A stretch of 32,000 nucleotides of DNA from Candidatus Saccharimonadota bacterium. Its GTDB lineage: Bacteria > Patescibacteriota > Gracilibacteria > BD1-5 > UBA2023. Positions 19,763 to 30,140 of the stretch are shown piece after piece (within the stretch, counting starts at the first letter, position 1; each line of letters begins with the position of its first letter). The DNA lies in assembly GCA_963706795.1 (NCBI GenBank), contig OY970170.1, forward strand, positions 540,001-572,000. The letters are read 5' to 3'. The position numbers and the translations under genes are program-made. The notes below the pieces were generated by a model, which was not told the DNA's origin, did no database searches, and saw nothing but the letters and a program-made list of their open reading frames with translations.

Positions 19763-20010
19763 ATTTCCGAAGCCCCTATTTATAGGGAAACCCCGCTTTG
19801 TGAAAAAAGTGTGAAGAGACCTGCATTGCGTTTGACTTCACTCCGTTCTTCATATAATTCGAGGCACGGAAAGGTAGCTGCAAATCTCCTTTTCACGTTC
19901 GTTAACACTCTTATACTCTTTCGCTTGTTCAAAAGTGAAAGGGGTATGTTGTTTACAACGTGCAAGTTTTTTTGAACTCCAAACTTTCCCTTCTAGTAGC
20001 TAGATTTTAC

Positions 20011-20052
20011 GAGAGGACGTGGTTTTTGTATATACAAAGGTCGCGTCCTCTC
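20011..20052 (+). promoter_or_regulatory. 42-nt imperfect hairpin with central 14-nt palindrome upstream of the S-layer gene
   Basis: GAGAGGACG (20011-20019) pairs with CGTCCTCTC (20044-20052). The interior contains the perfect palindrome TTTGTATATACAAA. No U-run follows on either strand. A TATAAT hexamer lies at 20099-20104, and the S-layer ATG is at 20201. Confidence 0.4.
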
Positions 20053-20200
20053 GTTATGTCAAAACTAACAGAGGTTAAAGCTTTAACTTCCCAGGAAGTA
20101 TAATCCTGGACGTACTACTGTCTGTAATACTGAGAATCGGCAAATCTCTCTAGAACATTCGAGGAAATACGGTTTTTACATTTAACTTATAGTTATTCCT

Positions 20201-23200
20201 ATGAGTACTCTTCTCAAGAAGGTTACTTCAACGGTAAGCGTTCTTTCGATCGCTGTAGCTGCTGTTAGCTCAACGCTTACAGTTTCTGCTGCATCTGAAT
20301 TTGCTGCTTCTGCTGAATTAGTCGCTCAGGCTGGTATTATTAATACTCAAGCAACTGAAGCCGGATACCGTCTCGGTGATAATATCACACGTGCGGAAAT
20401 GGCAAAAATCGCTGTTAAGCTCTCAGGGAGCGAAGCAGGAAGCTGTGCAGGTAATGTCTACTCAGATGTTACTTCAAAGCTTGGTGATCTCTGTGGATTT
20501 ATTGAAGCTGCGGCTGACGCTGGTATTGTCTCAAAGGCAAATGCTAAGTTCCGCCCTTCTGACCTCGTAACTCGAGCAGAAATGGTAAAGATGCTCCTCG
20601 CTGCCAGTGGAGTAGCTCCTACTGATGTTTCTGCTGGATTCTCTGACGTTTCTGCATCTCTTGGTGACCTTGCCGGGTACATCAATGCAGGAGTTGAAGA
20701 GGGTTGCGTTAAGGCAGGTGCAACATTCCGACCTAATGCTACTTCCACTCGTGGTGAAGCATTCAAGGTTACGGCTTGTGTAGCTGGTCTTACTGACACT
20801 ACTCCTACTACTCCACCTACTACTGGTACTGGAACTACAACTCCTCCTACTACTGGTACAGGTACTACTGTTCCTCCAGTTGTGATTGCAACAGGTGACC
20901 TCACGGCTACCCTCAATCCTGCAACTCCGGCTGCGACAACTCTTCCTACTGGTTCTGCTTACAACAAGGTTCTCGCTGTAGATCTTACAGCTGGTTCTGC
21001 TGATGCTGCAGTTACAGGTTTCGAAGTTACACGTACTGGTCTCATCTCTAACACAAACATCTCTGGTGTTTCTGCTTGGGTTGACGGTGCACGTCTCGGA
21101 AATGTAGTTCAGTCTCTCTCTGCTGATGGTAAGGCTACCGTTTCTTTCGGTAACACTCCACTCACTATTAAGGCTGGCACAACAAAGACAATTACTTTCG
21201 CGGTTAATATCCGTTCTGGAAATTATTCTGGTACAGTTGGTCTTACTCTCTCAAAGGTAATTGCAGGTGGTACTGTTACTGGTACTCCAGTTACATCTAA
21301 CACTCACTCAGTAGTTGATGGTTCTTCTTCACTCGTTTCATACGATGTTGGTTCTATCGCTGTTGGTGGTGTTGCTACTTCTATTGGAGCTTCTGCTCCA
21401 GTGAGTCCTACTCTTCTCGACATTGGTCAGACGACTGAAGTTGCTAAGGTTAAGATTACACACAACAACTCTAAGGAAGATCTCTCTATTGAAGGTATGA
21501 ATATCTTCATTGATGGATCAGTTTCAGACTCTGACCTCTCTGGTTTCGAAGTTTGGTCTCAGGAAGGTACGAAGCTCGCTTCAGCTGATGTTGCTAGCGG
21601 ACGCTACGTAAACTTCAAGTTTGCTACTCCTTACGTTATTGCTCAGGGTGGTACTCGCTACATGACTATTAAGGCTACTGTAGCTACTGGTAAGTACAAT
21701 TCAGGACGAAACTTCTCAGTTCGCATCCGTGATGATTTCGATATCGTTGCACGTGGTGTTACTACTGGAACATACATCCTCCCAAACAATCCTAACACTC
21801 TTCTCGGTAACCAGTACTGGTTCGGGATTAATGCAGGTAACCTCACTATCTCTAAGGCTACAGATTCTCGCAGCCAGAACATCGGTGCTAACGCAGACGA
21901 TCTCGTTCTCGCTACATTTGACGTAAAGGCTTCAGGTGAAGATATTGAAGTTCAGAAGGTTAACTTCTGTGTTACTAAGGCAAGTGGTGCAGTTGACCTC
22001 CGCGGAACTATTAAGATTACCGCTGGTGGACAGACTGTATTCTCTACAGATGCTTCTAATGTTAATAACTATGGAACTGTCCCTTGTACTGGTGGAAACA
22101 CTGGATACCTCAGTTCATACGTAACAATCAAGGCTGGTACTACTGCTAAGTTCAACGTTATTGCATCTACTTCTTCTTCAGCTGTTGCTGCAAGTTCGTA
22201 CGTTGCTTCAATCTTCAACTTCTCATACAAGCTCACTTCTTCTAACACTATTACAAACAGCACATCAGTTTACACTGGTAATACACTCGCTGTTGAAGCT
22301 ACAACTCTCACTGTTTCTGCAAACGGAGCGTTCAATCCTTCAAATATTGTTAAGGGACAGAGCCAGGCTAAGATTGGTTCATTCAACATCCAGGCATCTA
22401 ATGCTGACGATGTAAACGTAAACACTGTTATCGTAAACGTTGCTGCTACAGGTGGTCTCACTGGTATCAACAATCTTACACTTAAGTCTGGTGCTAAGCA
22501 GCTCGGAAATGTTATCTCAAATCCTGCCGCTACTGGAAACTCATTCTCAGTAAATTCTGGTGACCTCAAGGTTGCTAAGAACTCTACTGTTACTATTGAC
22601 GTATACGCTGACATTACTTCTGCTGTTACTGCAACTGCTATCTCTGTTAATATCGGTACAAACGGTGTTACAGGTGTTGGTGCTACTAACTCAGTAAGTC
22701 TTTCAGCTCCAGTTTCATCTGTTGGTGCTGTTGCACTCACAGTAGTTGGAAATGGTTCACTCACTATTGCTAGTGACTCTCTTACTCCAGGTAAGCAGAT
22801 TCTTACTGCTGGTCTTACTAACAAGGAAGTTTTCCGCTTCCAGGTTAAGGCTGACAACAAAGAAGATCTCCGCCTCGACAAGATTACTCTCGGAAGTTAC
22901 TCTACTGGTACGACCGTTACAGATCTTGGTAAGAACTTCCTCAATGTTAAGATCTACGACGGAGCAACTCAGCTCGGTGGTTCAGTTACATTCGTAGGTG
23001 GTGCTGCTAAGTTCACTGGACTCGGTTATGTTGTACCTAAGGGTGCTAACAAGACTCTCTCAGTTCGTGTTGATACTGCAACTTCAGGTGTTCTCGAGAA
23101 TGCAGCAACTGTTCTTCTTACTCCAACACAGGTAGAATATACTGGTGTTGCAGGTGGACAGCTCTCTGCTCTTGCTGCTCCTTCAGGTGTAGCTATCTCT

Positions 23201-23701
23201 AACAGCATGCTCCTCCAGGATGTTAAGGTTGTCCTCGCGTCAACTATGGCATCTCCAGCATCTAAGACAGTAGGATCTACAAACCAAGATATTGGTGCGT
23301 ATACACTTACTGCTGACGGTGTTCGTGATATCACTGTAACATCTCTCAAGGTGAAGCTCTCTGGTAGCGCGTTCTCTGGTTCTGCTGTTTCTAACGTACG
23401 TCTCCGATACAACAATACTGACTACGTTGGTACACTCTCTGGTTCTGTTGTAACATTCTCAACTCCGATCAATGTTACTTCAGGAAGCGCTATTAGTTTC
23501 ACAGTTCGTGCTGATACATCTGCTATTTCTGCAGGTGCTAACTCAACACTTACTCTCGGAACTTCTATCGAAGGTGTTTCTGGAATTGTAGATCCTACAA
23601 ACTCAGTTACATACAGCTATACAGACGTAAATGGTAACCCATTCACTGGCGTTACAACTTCTGACAGCTATCCAGTTGCAGGTGCAGTTCTTAGCTACTA
23701 A
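20201..23701 (+). CDS. S-layer-type surface protein: signal peptide, three SLH domains, Thr/Pro linker, six tandem ~155-aa beta-rich modules (1166 aa)
   Basis: Single uninterrupted ORF. The signal peptide is MSTLLKKVTSTVSVLSIAVAAVSSTLTVSA|ASE. SLH motifs are YSDVTSKLGDLCGFIEAAADAGIVSKANAKFRPSDLVTRAEMVKML, FSDVSASLGDLAGYINAGVEEGCVKAGATFRPNATSTRGEAF and a degenerate first copy. The body is Thr/Ser/Gly/Val-rich. A strong intrinsic terminator follows. Codon bias is strongly T-ending and there is no TGA codon. Confidence 0.8.
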   Translation: MSTLLKKVTSTVSVLSIAVAAVSSTLTVSAASEFAASAELVAQAGIINTQATEAGYRLGDNITRAEMAKIAVKLSGSEAGSCAGNVYSDVTSKLGDLCGFIEAAADAGIVSKANAKFRPSDLVTRAEMVKMLLAASGVAPTDVSAGFSDVSASLGDLAGYINAGVEEGCVKAGATFRPNATSTRGEAFKVTACVAGLTDTTPTTPPTTGTGTTTPPTTGTGTTVPPVVIATGDLTATLNPATPAATTLPTGSAYNKVLAVDLTAGSADAAVTGFEVTRTGLISNTNISGVSAWVDGARLGNVVQSLSADGKATVSFGNTPLTIKAGTTKTITFAVNIRSGNYSGTVGLTLSKVIAGGTVTGTPVTSNTHSVVDGSSSLVSYDVGSIAVGGVATSIGASAPVSPTLLDIGQTTEVAKVKITHNNSKEDLSIEGMNIFIDGSVSDSDLSGFEVWSQEGTKLASADVASGRYVNFKFATPYVIAQGGTRYMTIKATVATGKYNSGRNFSVRIRDDFDIVARGVTTGTYILPNNPNTLLGNQYWFGINAGNLTISKATDSRSQNIGANADDLVLATFDVKASGEDIEVQKVNFCVTKASGAVDLRGTIKITAGGQTVFSTDASNVNNYGTVPCTGGNTGYLSSYVTIKAGTTAKFNVIASTSSSAVAASSYVASIFNFSYKLTSSNTITNSTSVYTGNTLAVEATTLTVSANGAFNPSNIVKGQSQAKIGSFNIQASNADDVNVNTVIVNVAATGGLTGINNLTLKSGAKQLGNVISNPAATGNSFSVNSGDLKVAKNSTVTIDVYADITSAVTATAISVNIGTNGVTGVGATNSVSLSAPVSSVGAVALTVVGNGSLTIASDSLTPGKQILTAGLTNKEVFRFQVKADNKEDLRLDKITLGSYSTGTTVTDLGKNFLNVKIYDGATQLGGSVTFVGGAAKFTGLGYVVPKGANKTLSVRVDTATSGVLENAATVLLTPTQVEYTGVAGGQLSALAAPSGVAISNSMLLQDVKVVLASTMASPASKTVGSTNQDIGAYTLTADGVRDITVTSLKVKLSGSAFSGSAVSNVRLRYNNTDYVGTLSGSVVTFSTPINVTSGSAISFTVRADTSAISAGANSTLTLGTSIEGVSGIVDPTNSVTYSYTDVNGNPFTGVTTSDSYPVAGAVLSY
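20810..20869 (+). repeat. 2 x 30-nt tandem repeat encoding the TPPTTGTGTT linker
   Basis: Positions 20810-20839 and 20840-20869 both encode TPPTTGTGTT, with a few synonymous differences. The repeat lies between the SLH region and the modular body. Confidence 0.8.
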
Positions 23702-23732: not shown

Positions 23733-23768
23733 AAAAAATCCCCTCCTGCAAAGGAGGGGATTTTTTTT
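23733..23768 (+). terminator. rho-independent terminator of the S-layer gene
   Basis: The stem ATCCCCTCC (23738-23746) pairs with GGAGGGGAT (23753-23761) around the loop TGCAAA. It is followed by T8 (23761-23768) and preceded by an A6 tract. It lies 32 nt after the stop codon. Confidence 0.88.
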
Positions 23769-23903
23769 GTTGGTTTTTTTCTGATCTTTTTCCGTCTTTT
23801 TCGTTCAAATGAGAAGTAAACTGGTTTAGTTATTTTTTAATATTTTGAAATACAGTAATCAGTTATTTTTGAATTTTCTATTCGTTTTTTTAAATATATA
23901 TTT

Positions 23904-25313
23904 ATGTCTTTGTCTTCTAAGTTGTCTATCGTTTCTCTAAAACGAATCCTCTTTTGTCTGAGTCTTCTAATCGGTATTTCTATCAGTGATCAGATCGCAC
24001 TTGCGGCCCCACTTTGTCCGGACGATTACATCTCTATACGACCAACCCCACCTACTGACTCTTGATACTATGCTATATTTAATGATGTACCTTGAAATGC
24101 AACGTCACTTGTATGAATCTACGAAGGAGATAGTAAGGCAAAGGATATTGCATACTTTAATAAACTGAGCTGAGTAGTTTGTTATAAAATTATAGATCGC
24201 ATTAATTTTCAGGGGCTTGGATATAGTTGGAATGGCACCGTATGGACATATGTACGCGCTGAGTGATCGACGGGTGGAGCTAAATACGATTTTAAGAACT
24301 CAAGCCTTGTTGCGCCTGTCGTCAAAACCATGACCTGATCCAACTTTATTTTGCCAACCAATTCAGGTTCAATTAGCCTTACGCTATCTGGGATTACAGA
24401 TCCTGACGAATGACAGACACTTAGTTATAAATACCAATGGAACTGAACTGGGGGTGCGTGGATAAATTCTGGACTCACTAGTACAACGCCTAAATTAAAT
24501 TGAGTCGAAACCATATCAGTCTTTGGCGGATATCCAAATTTGCCCGAGGGTAGCAACACTCTGTATGTTCAAATTAGTGATTCTGAGCAGTACTCAAATA
24601 TATACTCAGTATTCTTTATAAAAGCTGTTAACAATCCGTTGATGACAGTTGTAAATCCAGATGCTAATTATGCAACATCCAAAACTGTAACGCTAACAGG
24701 AACATATCTAAATAATTTTACGCTGAGTTATAATATTAGTACATCGTCTATTTGTGATAAGAGTGGTGTTTTTACGCCGTATGCACCAGTTGTAATTAAA
24801 TCTACTTCAGATAATGGAAAATATGTTTGTTTTCGTGCAATGGATAGCTTCTGAAATGCTTTATATACAGTCTCAGATAAGGTCACATGAATAGTTACTG
24901 GTCGTGATAGCACCTCAAAGACTTCACCAGTTAAAAATTCTGACCTCTTTGCAAATTACTCTGAATGGTACAAAGGTTCGCTGCGGGATTATGACCCAAT
25001 TTTCATCCTTGTTAAGTCACAAGTCTCACAGTCAACTAATCTATCCTATACATGAAGTACTTTTAGTTATCCAAACCTTATTACCGATATAAATGGAGAT
25101 GGTCTTCCTGATCTCATAGTAACTAATTTCTCTATACGCCCAGAACCATACATGGTTAATGGGCAACAATTTATAGATTATAGTTATACAAACTCATACG
25201 GTTTGTTGCTTAACAGGGGAAATATGGATTATGAAGTAACATACAGATGTGTTCGCTACCAATCAAGCATTTATACGGGGAACAATGGCTACTACGGTGA
25301 CTGTGCTCAATAA
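23904..25313 (+). CDS. secreted Ig-like repeat / FG-GAP (VCBS)-motif protein, 469 aa
   Basis: ATG at 23904. The frame was checked codon by codon and contains 12 in-frame TGA and no TAA/TAG until 25311. The signal peptide is MSLSSKLSIVSLKRILFCLSLLIGISISDQIALA|AP. Two Ig/PKD-like segments are present (ITDPDEGQTLSYKYQWNG and KYVCFRAMDSFGNALYTVSDKV). One FG-GAP/VCBS-type motif is present (ITDINGDGLPDLIVTNF). Confidence 0.65.
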
Positions 25314-25355
25314 AAGAGCATGTCTTGACCTTATACCCAGTTACCATTTACCGTC

Positions 25356-28300
25356 ATGAAGAGTTTATTTTCTGTCATACTCCTATGACTCTTTTATGCT
25401 GCCTGTACGCCGCTTTGAGTAAGTGCAGATACTCAGGGTGGTGCGGGTTCGCAAGCTGCGCAAACGAAGCAATGAATTGATAAAAACAGTTCGTCATTTC
25501 AAAATGACCTCTTTTCGGGGGTTGCCGCATATTCCTATGATTTTGTCTTTCCGGCGGGACAACGAGGGCTCACTCCAAAGCTTGGGGTGAGCTATAACTC
25601 AGCAACGACTGATTCGCTCGCAGATGCTGGATACGGATTTTCGCTCGGAGTTTCGTCTATTTTCCGAGCTACACGCAAGGGGAATGACAAACTCTATACG
25701 CTCAATGAATTCGCTATAAACGCGGATTTTGGAAGCAACGAACTGCTTGAAACTGGTTCAGGAGTCTATATGGGTAAAAACAACAATGATCTTACTCAAT
25801 ATGGCTTCGCAGATGAAGCATGGACTGTTCGCGACAATCAGTGAAATACATATGTATTTTGAGGAAGCGATGTCTACCGACAAATCAATCCAGACAACAG
25901 CAAGACTTTTCGCTGGCTACTACGGGAGAAGCGGGATGCTTTTGGGCACAAAATCGCCTACGAATACGACAAAAAGGATAACAATATCTATCTTTCAAAG
26001 ATCTCATACGGCTTTTTCGGAGCTAATCCGCTCTATACGATACAAATCAACTACCTCGAGCGTACATTTTCGGCGCTGAGTTATATCTATGGCTTCAAGC
26101 TCGAAAATCATAGGCTTGTAAGTTCGATCGTTGGTAGTGTGTGTGATACGCAACCATGTCGAGAAATCAAACGATATGCGCTCAATTACAGCGACATCGA
26201 AACTGCCTTCCCAAAGCTTGTGACTATCTCTGAGAGTGCGGGAAGTCTTTCAAAGCCAGATAATTCCTTTGAATATTACAAAGACGGTATTGGGGTGAAT
26301 CTTCTGAAGACCATTCATAATGGGCGAGGAGGCGATATTGGACTCGAGTACAAATCTTCTACTGCGTACAAAAATACGACTGTACCGTTTGTCATTAAAA
26401 CACTCTATAAGGTCAGCTTTATAGATAGCGTAACAGGACTAAAAAACACAAAAACCTATGACTATATTGGTGGAAATTTTTACTTTGATCCCACCAATAT
26501 CTTTCAACGTGGCTACACGGGATTTAGCAAGGTGCGCATTATCTCGGACAACGGCACCTACACAGAGGATTCATTCCATCAATCGGAATCGGATTCCAAT
26601 AATGTACAAAATGCGACCCTCGGTGAGTTTGATGATCACATCAGCAAAAAAGGGAAAATCTACCGAGAAGAAAATTTTGATGCAAGTGGAAGCGTATACA
26701 CTTCACGTATTACTAAGTGGGTCAAAAGTGCCCGTGGAAACGGTGCATTCTTCGTATATCCAGAACAAAAGACGAACATCCTCTGGAATGGTAGTGGATC
26801 TCATCTAGATAGCGCGGAGAGCTTTGTATATGATAGGCTTGCTAATACGACGCACCATACATCGTATGGGCTCGTCACTGCAAATACGAGCAATGGAAGC
26901 TTCACGGATATTCCTGGTGATACTATCAACGAGGATGTGAGCTATGCTACGGACGATACAAATATTTTTGTTTCGCTTCCGTGCAGGTCATATAGCACAG
27001 ATATCAATTGAAAGGTCTATAACGACATTCGTTATACCTACGATACACTGGCAAATTGTCGTGTTACATCAGGGCTTCTCTCAAAAAAAGAGCAATCTTT
27101 TGCTGAAGAATCGCGCTTGATCGGTGAATCATACACCTACAACACAGGCTGACTCATGAGCCAAAAAACCGATCCACTCGGCAACACTACAAAATATGAG
27201 TACGACGCATACTGACTCTTTCCGATTACGGTCACCAATGCCAAGGGCTTTATTAATAGATTAAGCTACGACTATGGTATCCAGGCGCCCGTACTCTCGA
27301 CGGATCCAAATGGCGTAAAAAGCAAATCCGTCTATGACGCATTTGGACGCATGCTCGAACAGAGACTCATTGATACAAATGGTGCCGAGGTGCTGCTGAG
27401 TAAAAATCGTATCAGTGATGCTACGTCACCAAATTATGTTGAACAAACCCTTATCTTTGATGGCACGTCCTCAAAAGTAAGCCGAAGCCACTTCGATGGA
27501 TTTGGTAAGCAGATCGAAACAAAAACTTCCTCAAAGGATTCGAATGTCTTCTCGACAGCAAAGCAACGCTATGACACAGAATGAAATACCGTCTTTGCGA
27601 CACATGAGAGATTTGAGCCATCGCTCGACTATACTCCGATCGATGCGAGTGAACTTGGTAATACATTTACCTTTGACGCGCTCAATCGACTCTCGAGTCA
27701 GATCAACAAAGATGGGAAAACATCGTTTTCGTATGCCCTCCTTAAGACAACCGCCACCAACCAAAATAATATTCCAAAGTCATTTACCAAGGATATATTT
27801 GGCAATCTTGTCCAAGTTGACGAAGTTGCCTCGGGTAACACTTTTGTTACAAAATATGAATACCTCCAAGGCAACAAACTTGCCCGCATGACGGATGCAA
27901 AAAATAATACCCGAAGTCTGAGCTATGACAGTCTCGGTCGACTTACAAAAATGGAGGATTTACATGCCCAGAGCAATCTTACGCCTAAGTCGGTAACGCT
28001 CACCTATAATGATAATTCCCAGATCGCATCAAGAACATGACTCTCTGGTGAAAAAATCAGTTATACCTACGACTCTCTCGGGCGAGCCACCCAAGAAAAT
28101 GTCGCAGGGAAGATTGTGATATATGAGTATGATACAGGCTCGTATGGTCTCTGACGACTGAGCAAATTCACCAAAGATGGCTACGCAGAAAGCTATGCCT
28201 ACGATGCATTTGGGAGAAAGTCACAGGAGCAAAAAATATATTCTGACAAGACATACTCTCTCGGATATACCTATGCTACTGATGGCAGCGTACTGACCAT

Positions 28301-30140
28301 AACATATGACGATGGCAGCAAGGTAAATTACAGCTACCAAAACGGATATCTAGGTGCGATGAACTATGCTGGAAAGCCGATCCTGAATAATATCATCTAC
28401 GCAGATAACAATACCGCAAAACGCTACGAATATGCCAATGGTGTAACCACCGAAGATACACTCGACTACACCCATGGATACCGAATCATAGCTCGCAAGG
28501 CAACGTCAGGAAGTGGTATGCTTCAAAATCTGAGCTATGGCTTTGATACGCTCGGAAATATCACAGATATCAATGATGCTGCGGATACCATTCTCAAGAA
28601 GCAGAGTCATTTTGTCTATGACGACATTGGACGACTCGTAAATGCAAGCTTCACCAACACGGGTGGAACAAATGCCTATAGTTACGCATATGACGCGATA
28701 GGGAATATTACGAGCCAATCTGGCGTTGGGAACTATCTCTATGATGGCATCTATCCACATGCAGTAACTGCTGTAGGTGGTTCGCCACTTGCGTATGACA
28801 ACAATGGAAATGTCTCTCGCGAAGGATCAGGAATGCTCGTGAAAACATATGTATATAGTCCAAAACAAGAGCTCTTAAGCTCTCATAGTCCATCAAGCGA
28901 TGCTCAGTATCTCTACGATGCCTCTGCTGTACGAGTGCGAAAAGATAGTGTATCTGCTAATTCACAGTCGAGCACGAACTATGTTGGAGATGTCTACGAA
29001 GAACAAACTACCAAGCTCCTCAACGCGAGCGGGGCAGTTACGAGCACAAAAATTCTCCGTACCAAATATCTCTTTGCTGGTGGTATCAAGATCGCGAGTG
29101 TTCTCACGACTGATGGCGGACCAGAAAATATCACGTACCACCTCAGTGACCACCTTGGAGGTGCGAGCATAGATATTTCGCAGAGTTGAGCAGTTCTGCA
29201 ATATGCGGATTATCTGCCATATGGTGCTAATCGTATCCTCTCTCGTACTGGTAACTACAAAAATGCCTATCTCTTCACAGGCAAGGAAAAAGATGACGAG
29301 AGCGATCTTCAGTATTTTGAAGCGCGCTACTACTCTCCAACAAATGGACGATTCTATTCGCAGGACCGAGTTTTTTGGGAGATTGGACAAACTAAACGAG
29401 GACTTGGTACCTTGTCTGATCCACAGAAACTCAATGCATATTCTTATGCACGAAATAATCCGATTGTGTATAGTGATCCTACGGGAGAATACGATACGTC
29501 TGATTTTCAGCAAGCACTTAACGTGTGATGGGCTAATCTAAAAGATGGTGCTACACAGGTAACAAATCAAGTACAGCAAAAGGCAGATCAGGCAGCAACA
29601 ATGGCTGTTGATGTTTTGCATACAGTTGCAAGTATGATGCCAGATTCCCGACAAGTATGACAGTGACTCGTGTCAGCTGGAGGTGCAGTAGCAGCCTATA
29701 CAGGTCCAGCCTGTGCAGCTTCCGTGCAGATTAGTGGTGGTTGTGCGCTCGTTTGACTCGCTTGATGATGAATTCCTACTCTGGCTTGTACGCCACTCGC
29801 AGCGTCTGCTGGTGGTATATGTGGAGCTACTGCTGCTGGTATATGAGTTGCTGGTGTGGGTAACTATATGATGAGTCAGGGTGGAGGTAGTAATAACCAA
29901 AATCCTTCAAAATCTTCAGGAAAACCTCAGTATAAAGATACAAAGTCTTGATTAAGTTGAAAAGAAGGTGCAAAAGACACTCCAAGTTGGGCGAAATGAG
30001 AAAGACCATATGTTTGAGAATCATGAAAAGACTATGCAAAAAGATTGCTTGATTGAAAATTTGGACCATGAAACTACAGAACTTGACCAGAAAGTGATTT
30101 TAGTAAGATTAAAAAATATGGGGATCGTAACTTTAAATAA
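25356..30140 (+). CDS. SpvB-N / RHS (YD-repeat) polymorphic toxin, TcB-TcC-like, with signal peptide and variable C-terminal toxin tip (1594 aa)
   Basis: One frame was verified from 25356 to TAA 30138-30140 with 28 in-frame TGA. An alternative upstream ATG exists at 25320. The signal peptide is MKSLFSVILLGLFYAACTPLGVSA|D, and it contains a lipobox-like YAAC. An SpvB/TcaC N-terminal signature is present (GVAAYSYDFVFPAGQRGLTPKLGVSYNS ... FRWLLREKRDAFGHKIAYEYD). There are many YD repeats (YTYDSLGR, YAYDAFGR, FVYDDIGRL, YAYDAIGNIT, LAYDNNGNV). The Rhs core end reads ARYYSPTNGRFYSQD ... NAYSYARNNPIVYSDPTGE at 29475-29489, followed by a 216-aa tip. Confidence 0.9.

Follow-up and report, generated by a model that had tools for sequence, protein, structure and literature searches.

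A UGA-free S-layer gene in a bacterium that reads UGA as glycine

Why would a long, glycine-rich gene contain no UGA in a genome where UGA is itself a glycine codon? The question is raised by an open reading frame (ORF) in a 32,000-nucleotide (nt) stretch of a Candidatus Saccharimonadota bacterium (GTDB lineage Bacteria; Patescibacteriota; Gracilibacteria; BD1-5; UBA2023), which spans positions 540,001 to 572,000 of contig OY970170.1 in assembly GCA_963706795.1 and is called the window below. The ORF encodes a predicted SLH-anchored surface-layer (S-layer) protein. The original prediction, made from the letters of this stretch, offered two readings: that the reassigned codon has been purged from genes with high expression, or that the gene was recently acquired from a standard-code donor. 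We conclude, with a probability of roughly 0.85, that this is the native, vertically inherited gene for a major SLH-anchored S-layer protein of a Gracilibacteria-type bacterium using code 25, and that it is heavily translated and under strong translational selection.

UGA in the S-layer gene, its homologues and ribosomal-protein genes

Since four of the six TGA codons in the window's GlyA align to invariant Gly residues in solved structures of serine hydroxymethyltransferase (SHMT), and none to Trp, we read the genome with code 25 (UGA = Gly, not Trp). Recounting the S-layer gene reproduced an earlier hand count exactly (1166 codons, about 121 GGN glycines, no TGA). When the other 20 genes of the window were pooled, TGA made up 119 of 696 Gly codons (17.1%), with a per-gene range of 0-43%. 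A binomial model gives a probability of 1.4e-10 for drawing no TGA among 121 Gly codons; a beta-binomial, fitted to the spread between these 20 genes, gives 1.6e-4.

A scan of species-representative genomes yielded ~60 code-25 loci with an S-layer homologue, and we based the family counts on the 39 homologues from loci whose neighboring genes use >8% TGA. These 39 genes contain five TGAs in 3,560 Gly codons, where ~730 were expected, and in every one of the 39 loci the TGA share of the homologue was below that of its own neighbors. The five residual TGAs are scattered singletons at non-conserved positions. Related code-25 loci supplied 209 ordinary ORFs with ≥30 Gly codons; two of these had ≤2% TGA, and both proved to be unlabeled S-layer-family proteins. 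GGA, a single synonymous transversion from TGA, accounts for 34% of Gly codons in the family, and the TGA:GGA ratio is 0.004 in S-layer genes versus 0.61 in their neighbors, or 145-fold lower. Thus, the absence of UGA lies outside the normal spread between genes.

UGA is not the only codon that has been lost. When all sense codons were ranked by depletion in the S-layer genes of moderate-GC genomes, TGA came first (131-fold), followed by CGG (44-fold) and CCC (23-fold). The proposed purge of TGA therefore stands to the extent that TGA is the most depleted codon pooled over the family, but not as the loss of one codon. In the window gene, ATA (0/59), AGA (0/24), and TTG and CTG (0/78) have been dropped, and AAA (2/50) and TTT (4/34) nearly so. 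The T-ending bias noted earlier was also recovered, with a third-position T frequency of 0.505 compared to 0.24-0.41 in the other window genes. This bias is a property of the four-fold boxes, which lean to T (GGT 69%, GCT 63%, ACT 62%, GTT 69%); the two-fold pyrimidine boxes lean to C (TTC 88%, TAC 77%, AAC 58%, CAC 2/2), and AAG is chosen over AAA and CAG over CAA. T in four-fold boxes together with C in two-fold pyrimidine boxes is the classical signature of translational selection.

We examined ribosomal-protein genes in relatives, taking the S10-spc operon from two L2 cluster-mates of the source genome, L161 and L162. L162 belongs to the same metagenome-assembled genome (MAG) as locus L002, and the S-layer protein of L002 shares 76% identity with the window protein. 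In L162, TGA was absent from 18 ribosomal-protein genes (0/235 Gly codons) and from SecY (0/47); rplX is the only ribosomal-protein gene of this locus with TGA, of which it has two. In all 17 code-25 loci that offered enough data, ribosomal-protein genes used less TGA than controls (p = 7.6e-6), and in genomes of 37-46% G+C they used 0-2% TGA versus 9-22% in neighboring genes. Depletion in the ribosomal-protein genes of moderate-GC genomes was again strongest for TGA (16-fold), with AGG next (15-fold). The expectation that ribosomal proteins would also avoid UGA is thus borne out in these relatives.

The resemblance extends to synonymous codons in general. Codon fractions of the S-layer gene correlated with those of the L161/L162 ribosomal-protein genes at r = 0.93, compared to 0.45 with its window neighbors, and codon enrichment over background in S-layer and ribosomal-protein genes agreed with a Spearman coefficient of 0.86. 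On a ribosomal-likeness score the S-layer gene reached +0.30, while all other window genes fell between -0.06 and -0.62. The preferred codons are common to both, the S-layer gene uses them more strongly, and rare codons, ATA, AGA, AGG, and CGG among them, have been purged, as seen in this gene or in the pooled rankings of the family and the ribosomal-protein genes. By this match to the ribosomal-protein genes of close relatives, the S-layer gene belongs to the translationally optimized class. The first of the two original readings, a purge of the reassigned codon from highly expressed genes, is therefore supported by the ribosomal-like codon preferences, by ribosomal-protein genes that are nearly free of TGA, and by the purge in all 39 homologues.

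CGG deserves separate mention. It is absent from the window S-layer gene (0/24) and is the third most depleted codon (7-fold) in ribosomal-protein genes of moderate-GC code-25 loci. Shulgina and Eddy predicted that CGG has been reassigned to Trp in Absconditabacteria and some Gracilibacteria (PMC8629427), and the lineage may avoid CGG because its decoding there is ambiguous or in flux.

The TGAs that persist in ribosomal-protein genes recur at particular sites. Two lie in the N terminus of L24 (MKIHSgDIVRVIAgK; rplX, L162:11794-12133), and one occupies the same KKgP position of S19 in two genomes (rpsS, L018:14949-15212 and L037:14768-15031). Slow decoding may be tolerated, or even useful, at these sites.

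Codon bias, together with the promoter, structured leader, and terminator described below, suggests that the S-layer gene is highly expressed. In a published metaproteome, an SLH-domain protein of a Gracilibacteria MAG with 43% G+C had 106 protein counts versus 1-8 for other proteins in the bin (PMC11452946 Table S8); the supplement of Hanke et al. 2014 contained no S-layer entries. The codon bias of the gene exceeds that of ribosomal-protein genes, and the protein would rank among the most abundant of the cell; as an S-layer protein it would form the paracrystalline outermost layer.

The probable cost of UGA and competing explanations

If few genes of the cell are translated as heavily as the S-layer gene, its synonymous sites would be under strong translational selection, which would favor codons ending in T in four-fold boxes, favor those ending in C in two-fold pyrimidine boxes, and strip out every poorly decoded codon. 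UGA-Gly would be the most strongly counter-selected of these, with GGA, one transversion away, tolerated at about one third of Gly sites. The cost of UGA would most likely lie in slow or error-prone decoding by a single dedicated tRNA-Gly(UCA). We infer this reason for the cost, and slow and inaccurate decoding fit the data alike. Possible sources are a limited supply of tRNA-Gly(UCA), competition from the near-cognate tRNA-Trp(CCA), or a ceiling on the activity of tRNA(UCA), whose U34 could misread UGG. Shulgina and Eddy pointed out that a U34 tRNA(UCA) risks reading UGG, with possible UGA/UGG ambiguity (PMC8629427), and proteomics of a BD1-5 bacterium revealed rare non-Gly readings of UGA, Trp included, at a low level (PMC4032931). 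Premature termination at UGA is unlikely, because prfB, which encodes release factor 2 (RF2), is reported to be absent from all BD1-5 genomes (PMC6851277). We detected no tRNA gene of any kind in the window, tRNA-Gly(UCA) included, and no tRNA-Gly in 68 related code-25 loci (1.1 Mb).

Some observations weigh against strong translational selection as the explanation. The ribosomal-protein evidence comes from close relatives and not from the source genome, and the case for expression combines codon bias and sequence signals with the metaproteome of a different MAG, in which orthology with the window gene is not established. The control genes in related loci are automatic ORF calls, which in the window give 16.7% TGA versus 17.1% for curated genes. 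Across the 20 other window genes, the relation between ribosomal-like bias and TGA fraction is weak, with the expected direction (Spearman -0.35, p = 0.13). Finally, in genomes of 24-30% G+C (L089-L109, metagenome contigs), ribosomal-protein genes and SecY contain 19-54% TGA, compared to 47-81% in ordinary genes, so decoding of UGA is not intrinsically prohibitive. The difference between these AT-rich genomes and the moderate-GC genomes indicates that the cost of UGA differs greatly among lineages that share code 25.

We considered whether a strand mutation bias linked to transcription, such as C-to-T change on the non-template strand, made the third positions T-rich and removed TGA incidentally. 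The frequency of T at third positions fits this explanation, as does the AT skew along the gene (-0.08 to -0.19), which reflects a T-rich coding strand. However, C is preferred in the two-fold pyrimidine boxes, the opposite of what C-to-T change would produce, and since T-ending and C-ending preferences coexist, a single strand-specific mutation bias cannot explain the codon pattern. GGA, GCA, ACA, and GTA also remain common while TGA has fallen 145-fold relative to GGA, AAG outnumbers AAA and CAG outnumbers CAA, and ribosomal-protein genes, which lie at other loci, share these preferences. We regard this explanation as very unlikely.

A second possibility, to which we give an equally small chance, is that the gene is a relic of codon capture. 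If UGA-Gly arises only by mutation after the reassignment, slowly changing genes may not yet have been filled, and the ribosomal proteins, which evolve slowly and also lack TGA, agree with this idea. The S-layer protein, however, evolves fast: it is 58-76% identical between relatives that share a 90% cluster of L2 or have uvrA at 74-89% identity, and its synonymous sites are saturated because of this. GGA, from which TGA is one step away, is present at 34% of Gly sites, and the singleton TGAs show that the codon does arise, at non-conserved positions, and never spreads.

The second original reading, in which a Firmicute or another SLH-bearing organism with the standard code recently donated the gene and it has not yet ameliorated to code 25, did not hold up. 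In its favor, SLH domains are best known from Firmicutes, a gene without TGA can be read in either code, and the SLH region has weak matches to Bacillus, Halobacillus, Clostridia, and others. But the Firmicute matches are confined to that region (residues ~4-230) at 27-33% identity and no homology reaches the body, while full-length homologues with 30-76% identity occur throughout Gracilibacteria/Patescibacteria MAGs; nearly every Gracilibacteria locus that we fetched contains one. In dozens of Gracilibacteria genomes the gene adjoins uvrA-murB-rluB or ctp-glyA-comEC-lgt-rny, and its identity falls from 76% to ~30% in step with these neighbors (uvrA, 89% down to 59%). Its G+C content (0.43-0.46) is close to the window mean (~0.42), its codon usage is that of native ribosomal-protein genes, and its promoter and leader are conserved across the lineage. 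The hallmarks of a foreign gene that we looked for, namely odd composition, lack of synteny, patchy distribution, and close homologues in a donor, were all absent. Since the purge is found in each of the 39 homologues, transfer would have had to occur recently and independently dozens of times, and we consider such an origin highly improbable.

Selection for code neutrality, which would keep a UGA-free gene functional in standard-code cells, is just as improbable. This interpretation has been applied to TGA-free phages with Gracilibacteria as predicted hosts (PMC10746230). However, we see no plausible benefit of neutrality for a structural gene that sits on the chromosome within conserved synteny; the purge extends to ribosomal-protein genes and SecY, and many standard codons were purged alongside UGA, which code neutrality does not predict. 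Least probable of all, to the point of being negligible, is chance: although TGA fractions spread widely among window genes and one small gene also has none (0/9), none of the ~207 ordinary ORFs with at least 30 Gly codons falls to ≤2% TGA, both models give low probabilities, and the absence is replicated in 39 of 39 homologues.

The S-layer protein, its leader and the surrounding genes

Features of the locus are listed in Table 1, where model confidence is given as the predicted local distance difference test (pLDDT). The prediction of SLH repeats was supported by a match to Pfam PF00395 in two scored stretches (E = 3.9e-12). An AlphaFold model built on 21 homologues has a mean pLDDT of 79.7, and Pfam and the model together place three SLH repeats after a secretion signal, the arrangement of an SLH-anchored S-layer protein. 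A fold search of the PDB with the body returned generic matches to Ig-like chains only, with template modeling (TM) scores ≤0.15. Sequence and model thus identify the product as a predicted SLH-anchored S-layer protein of a lineage-specific family.

Sap and EA1 of Bacillus anthracis are SLH-anchored S-layer proteins of Firmicutes. The window protein resembles them in having a signal peptide, three SLH repeats as an anchor, and then a large self-contained body. It differs in that the body is unrelated in sequence and resembles no solved S-layer structure beyond generic Ig-like beta-sandwiches. The binding partner of SLH domains in the CsaB system is a pyruvylated secondary cell-wall polymer; no csaB-like gene is among the annotated genes of the window, and no search aimed at csaB was made.

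Table 1. Features of the S-layer locus, in window coordinates
Feature	Position	Strand	Description
Upstream box	19799..19818	+	TGTGAAAAAAGTGTGAAGAG; ~14 nt 5' of the -35 hexamer; conserved in the alignment of relatives
Promoter-like site (function inferred)	19832..19858	+	TTGACT - 15 nt - TATAAT; near-consensus; ~340 nt upstream of the ATG
Structured leader / 5' untranslated region (transcript ends inferred)	19859..20200	+	~340 nt; blocks conserved across genomes
Invariant palindromic core	20071..20087	+	GAGGTTAAAGCTTTAAC; 17 nt, inside the leader; 8-bp hairpin, loop AGCU
Whole coding sequence	20201..23701	+	1166 codons; 121 Gly: GGT 84, GGA 32, GGG 3, GGC 2, TGA 0; extreme codon bias
Signal peptide, residues 1-31	20201..20293	+	Hydrophobic N terminus ending VSA/ASEF; low-confidence model segment; kept in homologues
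Cell-wall anchor, residues 35-198	20303..20794	+	Three SLH repeats, Pfam PF00395; three helical units in the AlphaFold model
Disordered linker, residues 199-230	20795..20890	+	Thr/Pro/Gly-rich, TTPTTPPTTGTGTTTPPTTGTGTT; pLDDT ~30
Body, residues 231-1166	20891..23698	+	Chain of beta-sandwich (Ig-like) domains; all-beta model, block pLDDT mostly 75-93
Intrinsic terminator	23733..23780	+	15-bp stem AAAAAATCCCCTCC/GGAGGGGATTTTTT, loop TGCA (hairpin 23733-23766), then T-run

The long leader proposed for this gene is plausible and conserved, as the promoter-like site recurs in relatives. The site is kept in L002, L004, and L005, and 39 of 48 S-layer loci match TTGAC[TA]...TATAAT at a distance of 326-485 nt upstream of the ATG; our scan for consensus promoters missed the window site because its spacer is 15 nt. 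The upstream box is found with ≤3 mismatches in 35 of the 48 loci, at a constant offset from the promoter. Blocks of the leader are conserved between genomes whose S-layer proteins are just ~61% identical. The hairpins in the window leader include terminator-like ones at 19916-19963, a long one at 20009-20054, and one at 20091-20109, and folding each sequence separately revealed a recurring architecture. In the downstream leader hairpin with loop CUGACCN (30 loci, the largest subfamily), a fixed-register alignment showed compensatory changes at 9 of 9 pairs. When the leader core was aligned with MAFFT and folded with RNAalifold, the invariant hairpin alone was recovered; the flanking hairpins were misaligned. 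A search of the leader against Rfam returned no family, only sub-threshold microRNA noise.

The hairpin core GAGGTTAAAGCTTTAAC matches both strands because it is palindromic, and it has one site in the window, where 0.02 would be expected by chance. We found one site per locus in ~55 code-25 loci (for example, L002:9870, L017:9855, and L018:2977), preceding the ATG by 110-270 nt wherever the S-layer ORF is labeled, and never elsewhere in the fetched loci, ribosomal-protein loci included. The core is invariant across genomes whose S-layer proteins are only ~30% identical. In the predicted pairing, a leader GAGG has two possible partners, an upstream CCUC and a downstream CYUC, and forming one helix excludes the other. 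The element could act in mRNA stability, as an operator bound by a protein, or as a switch. The slpA gene of Lactobacillus also has a long structured 5' untranslated leader, which confers high mRNA stability. The two are alike in having several hundred nt with stable hairpins, predicted in our case, upstream of an S-layer gene; they differ in the 17-nt palindromic core, which is invariant in ~55 genomes and belongs to no Rfam family. Downstream of the gene, the terminator hairpin has the longest stem of all terminator-like sites in the window, in agreement with the earlier description of it as the strongest.

Under code 25, the S-layer gene is overlapped by an antisense ORF of 989 codons (20318-23287, minus strand) with 33 TGAs. 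This ORF exists because TTA (one) and CTA (none) have been purged from the sense strand and because 39 sense TCA codons are read as TGA in antisense. It is a by-product of codon bias and not a gene, and a gene caller set to code 25 or code 4 could pick it up as a spurious ORF.

When the window is read with table 11, short ORFs appear everywhere, with 20201-23701 as the sole exception. Once TGA is no longer counted as a stop, leaving TAA and TAG, an ordinary run of genes emerges: era, rny, lgt, comEC, glyA, ctp, pepA, comF, uvrA, ddl, murB, and rluB, then the S-layer gene, followed by a gene of 469 codons and an RHS/Tc-toxin gene. The 469-codon gene (23904-25313) encodes a secreted protein in which TGA specifies 30% of Gly. 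The following gene (25320-30140) encodes a 1600-codon RHS/TcdB-type toxin with 18% TGA, very dense in the C-terminal ~170 residues. The counts of TGA reported for these neighbors were reproduced (12 in the 469-codon gene and six each in glyA, ctp, and pepA); the count of 28 for the RHS gene holds from its called start and becomes 29 from the first possible start. As the genes for both the secreted protein and the toxin use TGA, surface or toxin function alone does not bring avoidance of the codon.

One further locus, L060 (OZ252287.1, labeled Candidatus Altimarinota, a 1.37-Mb chromosome), has just 2.8% in-frame TGA. It encodes an EF-Tu 79% identical to that of E. coli and a 3478-residue protein with an SLH-like region. 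The organism seems to use the standard code, and the taxon named on the record may not denote a code-25 Gracilibacterium. Since the locus has almost no in-frame TGA, we left its EF-Tu out of the comparison; approximate E. coli queries for EF-Tu, GroEL, DnaK, and EF-G found none in the fetched code-25 loci.

UGA-glycine as a second-class codon

Highly expressed genes of bacteria are known to be under translational selection at their synonymous codons, a subject linked with Ikemura and with the codon adaptation index of Sharp and Li. The S-layer gene fits that description in having the preferred codons of ribosomal-protein genes in a stronger form. It differs in that the avoided set includes a reassigned stop codon, which ranks as the most avoided.

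Depletion of reassigned stops has precedents in eukaryotes. In Blastocrithidia (PMC12153298) and the ciliate Oligohymenophorea sp. PL0344 (PMC10553269), reassigned stops are distributed non-randomly and are depleted in highly expressed genes, cytosolic ribosomal proteins included, which the authors read as a translational burden. Those cases involve reassignment of UAR to Glu, Gln, or Lys or of UGA to Trp, in part with a competing release factor. Here, the organism is a bacterium in which UGA is Gly, presumably read by a dedicated tRNA(UCA), with RF2 reported lost in the lineage (PMC6851277), and depletion is near-absolute in one gene family. In the literature that we consulted, which did not cover Campbell et al. 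2013 (PMC3619370), we found no statement that UGA is depleted in highly expressed genes of code-25 bacteria. As both codon adaptation and depletion of reassigned codons are already established, the bacterial case is an extension and not a new principle.

Mycoplasma and relatives (code 4) read UGA as Trp and use it as the dominant Trp codon even in highly expressed genes. They share with code-25 bacteria a reassigned UGA, AT-rich reduced genomes, and the loss of RF2, and they stand nearer to the very AT-rich code-25 genomes, with their 19-54% TGA in ribosomal-protein genes, than to the moderate-GC genome studied here.

It is conceivable, at slightly less than even odds in our judgment, that UGA-Gly is the single most counter-selected sense codon in the heavily translated genes of moderate-GC code-25 bacteria and not merely one rare codon among several. 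If so, a reassigned stop codon would keep a specific decoding cost, whether in speed, in Gly/Trp ambiguity, or in a ceiling on tRNA(UCA), long after its reassignment. Lineages would have relieved this cost to different degrees, and would offer a natural series in which to follow the maturation of a captured codon.

The pattern also bears on phages of these hosts. TGA-free phages of Gracilibacteria/Absconditabacteria have been described as compatible with both codes and TGA-dense prophages as codon-optimized, on the argument that dense TGA is optimal in these hosts (PMC10746230). Our reading is the reverse: as the most translationally selected host genes are free of TGA, a phage without TGA could reflect optimization to its host. 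TGA-free phages of code-25 hosts may thus be codon-optimized and not dual-code generalists, and a lack of TGA, in these phages (PMC10746230) as elsewhere, is no proof of foreign origin or of a dual-code lifestyle.

For genome annotation, long TGA-free ORFs in code-25 MAGs flag highly expressed genes, and they are the few genes called correctly when such a MAG is mis-annotated with code 11. As the effect is large, recurs in dozens of genomes, and is graded with G+C content, the cost of a reassignment becomes measurable from sequence alone. In these bacteria, UGA-Gly is used freely in ordinary genes and is excluded from the most heavily translated ones, making it a functional but second-class codon.

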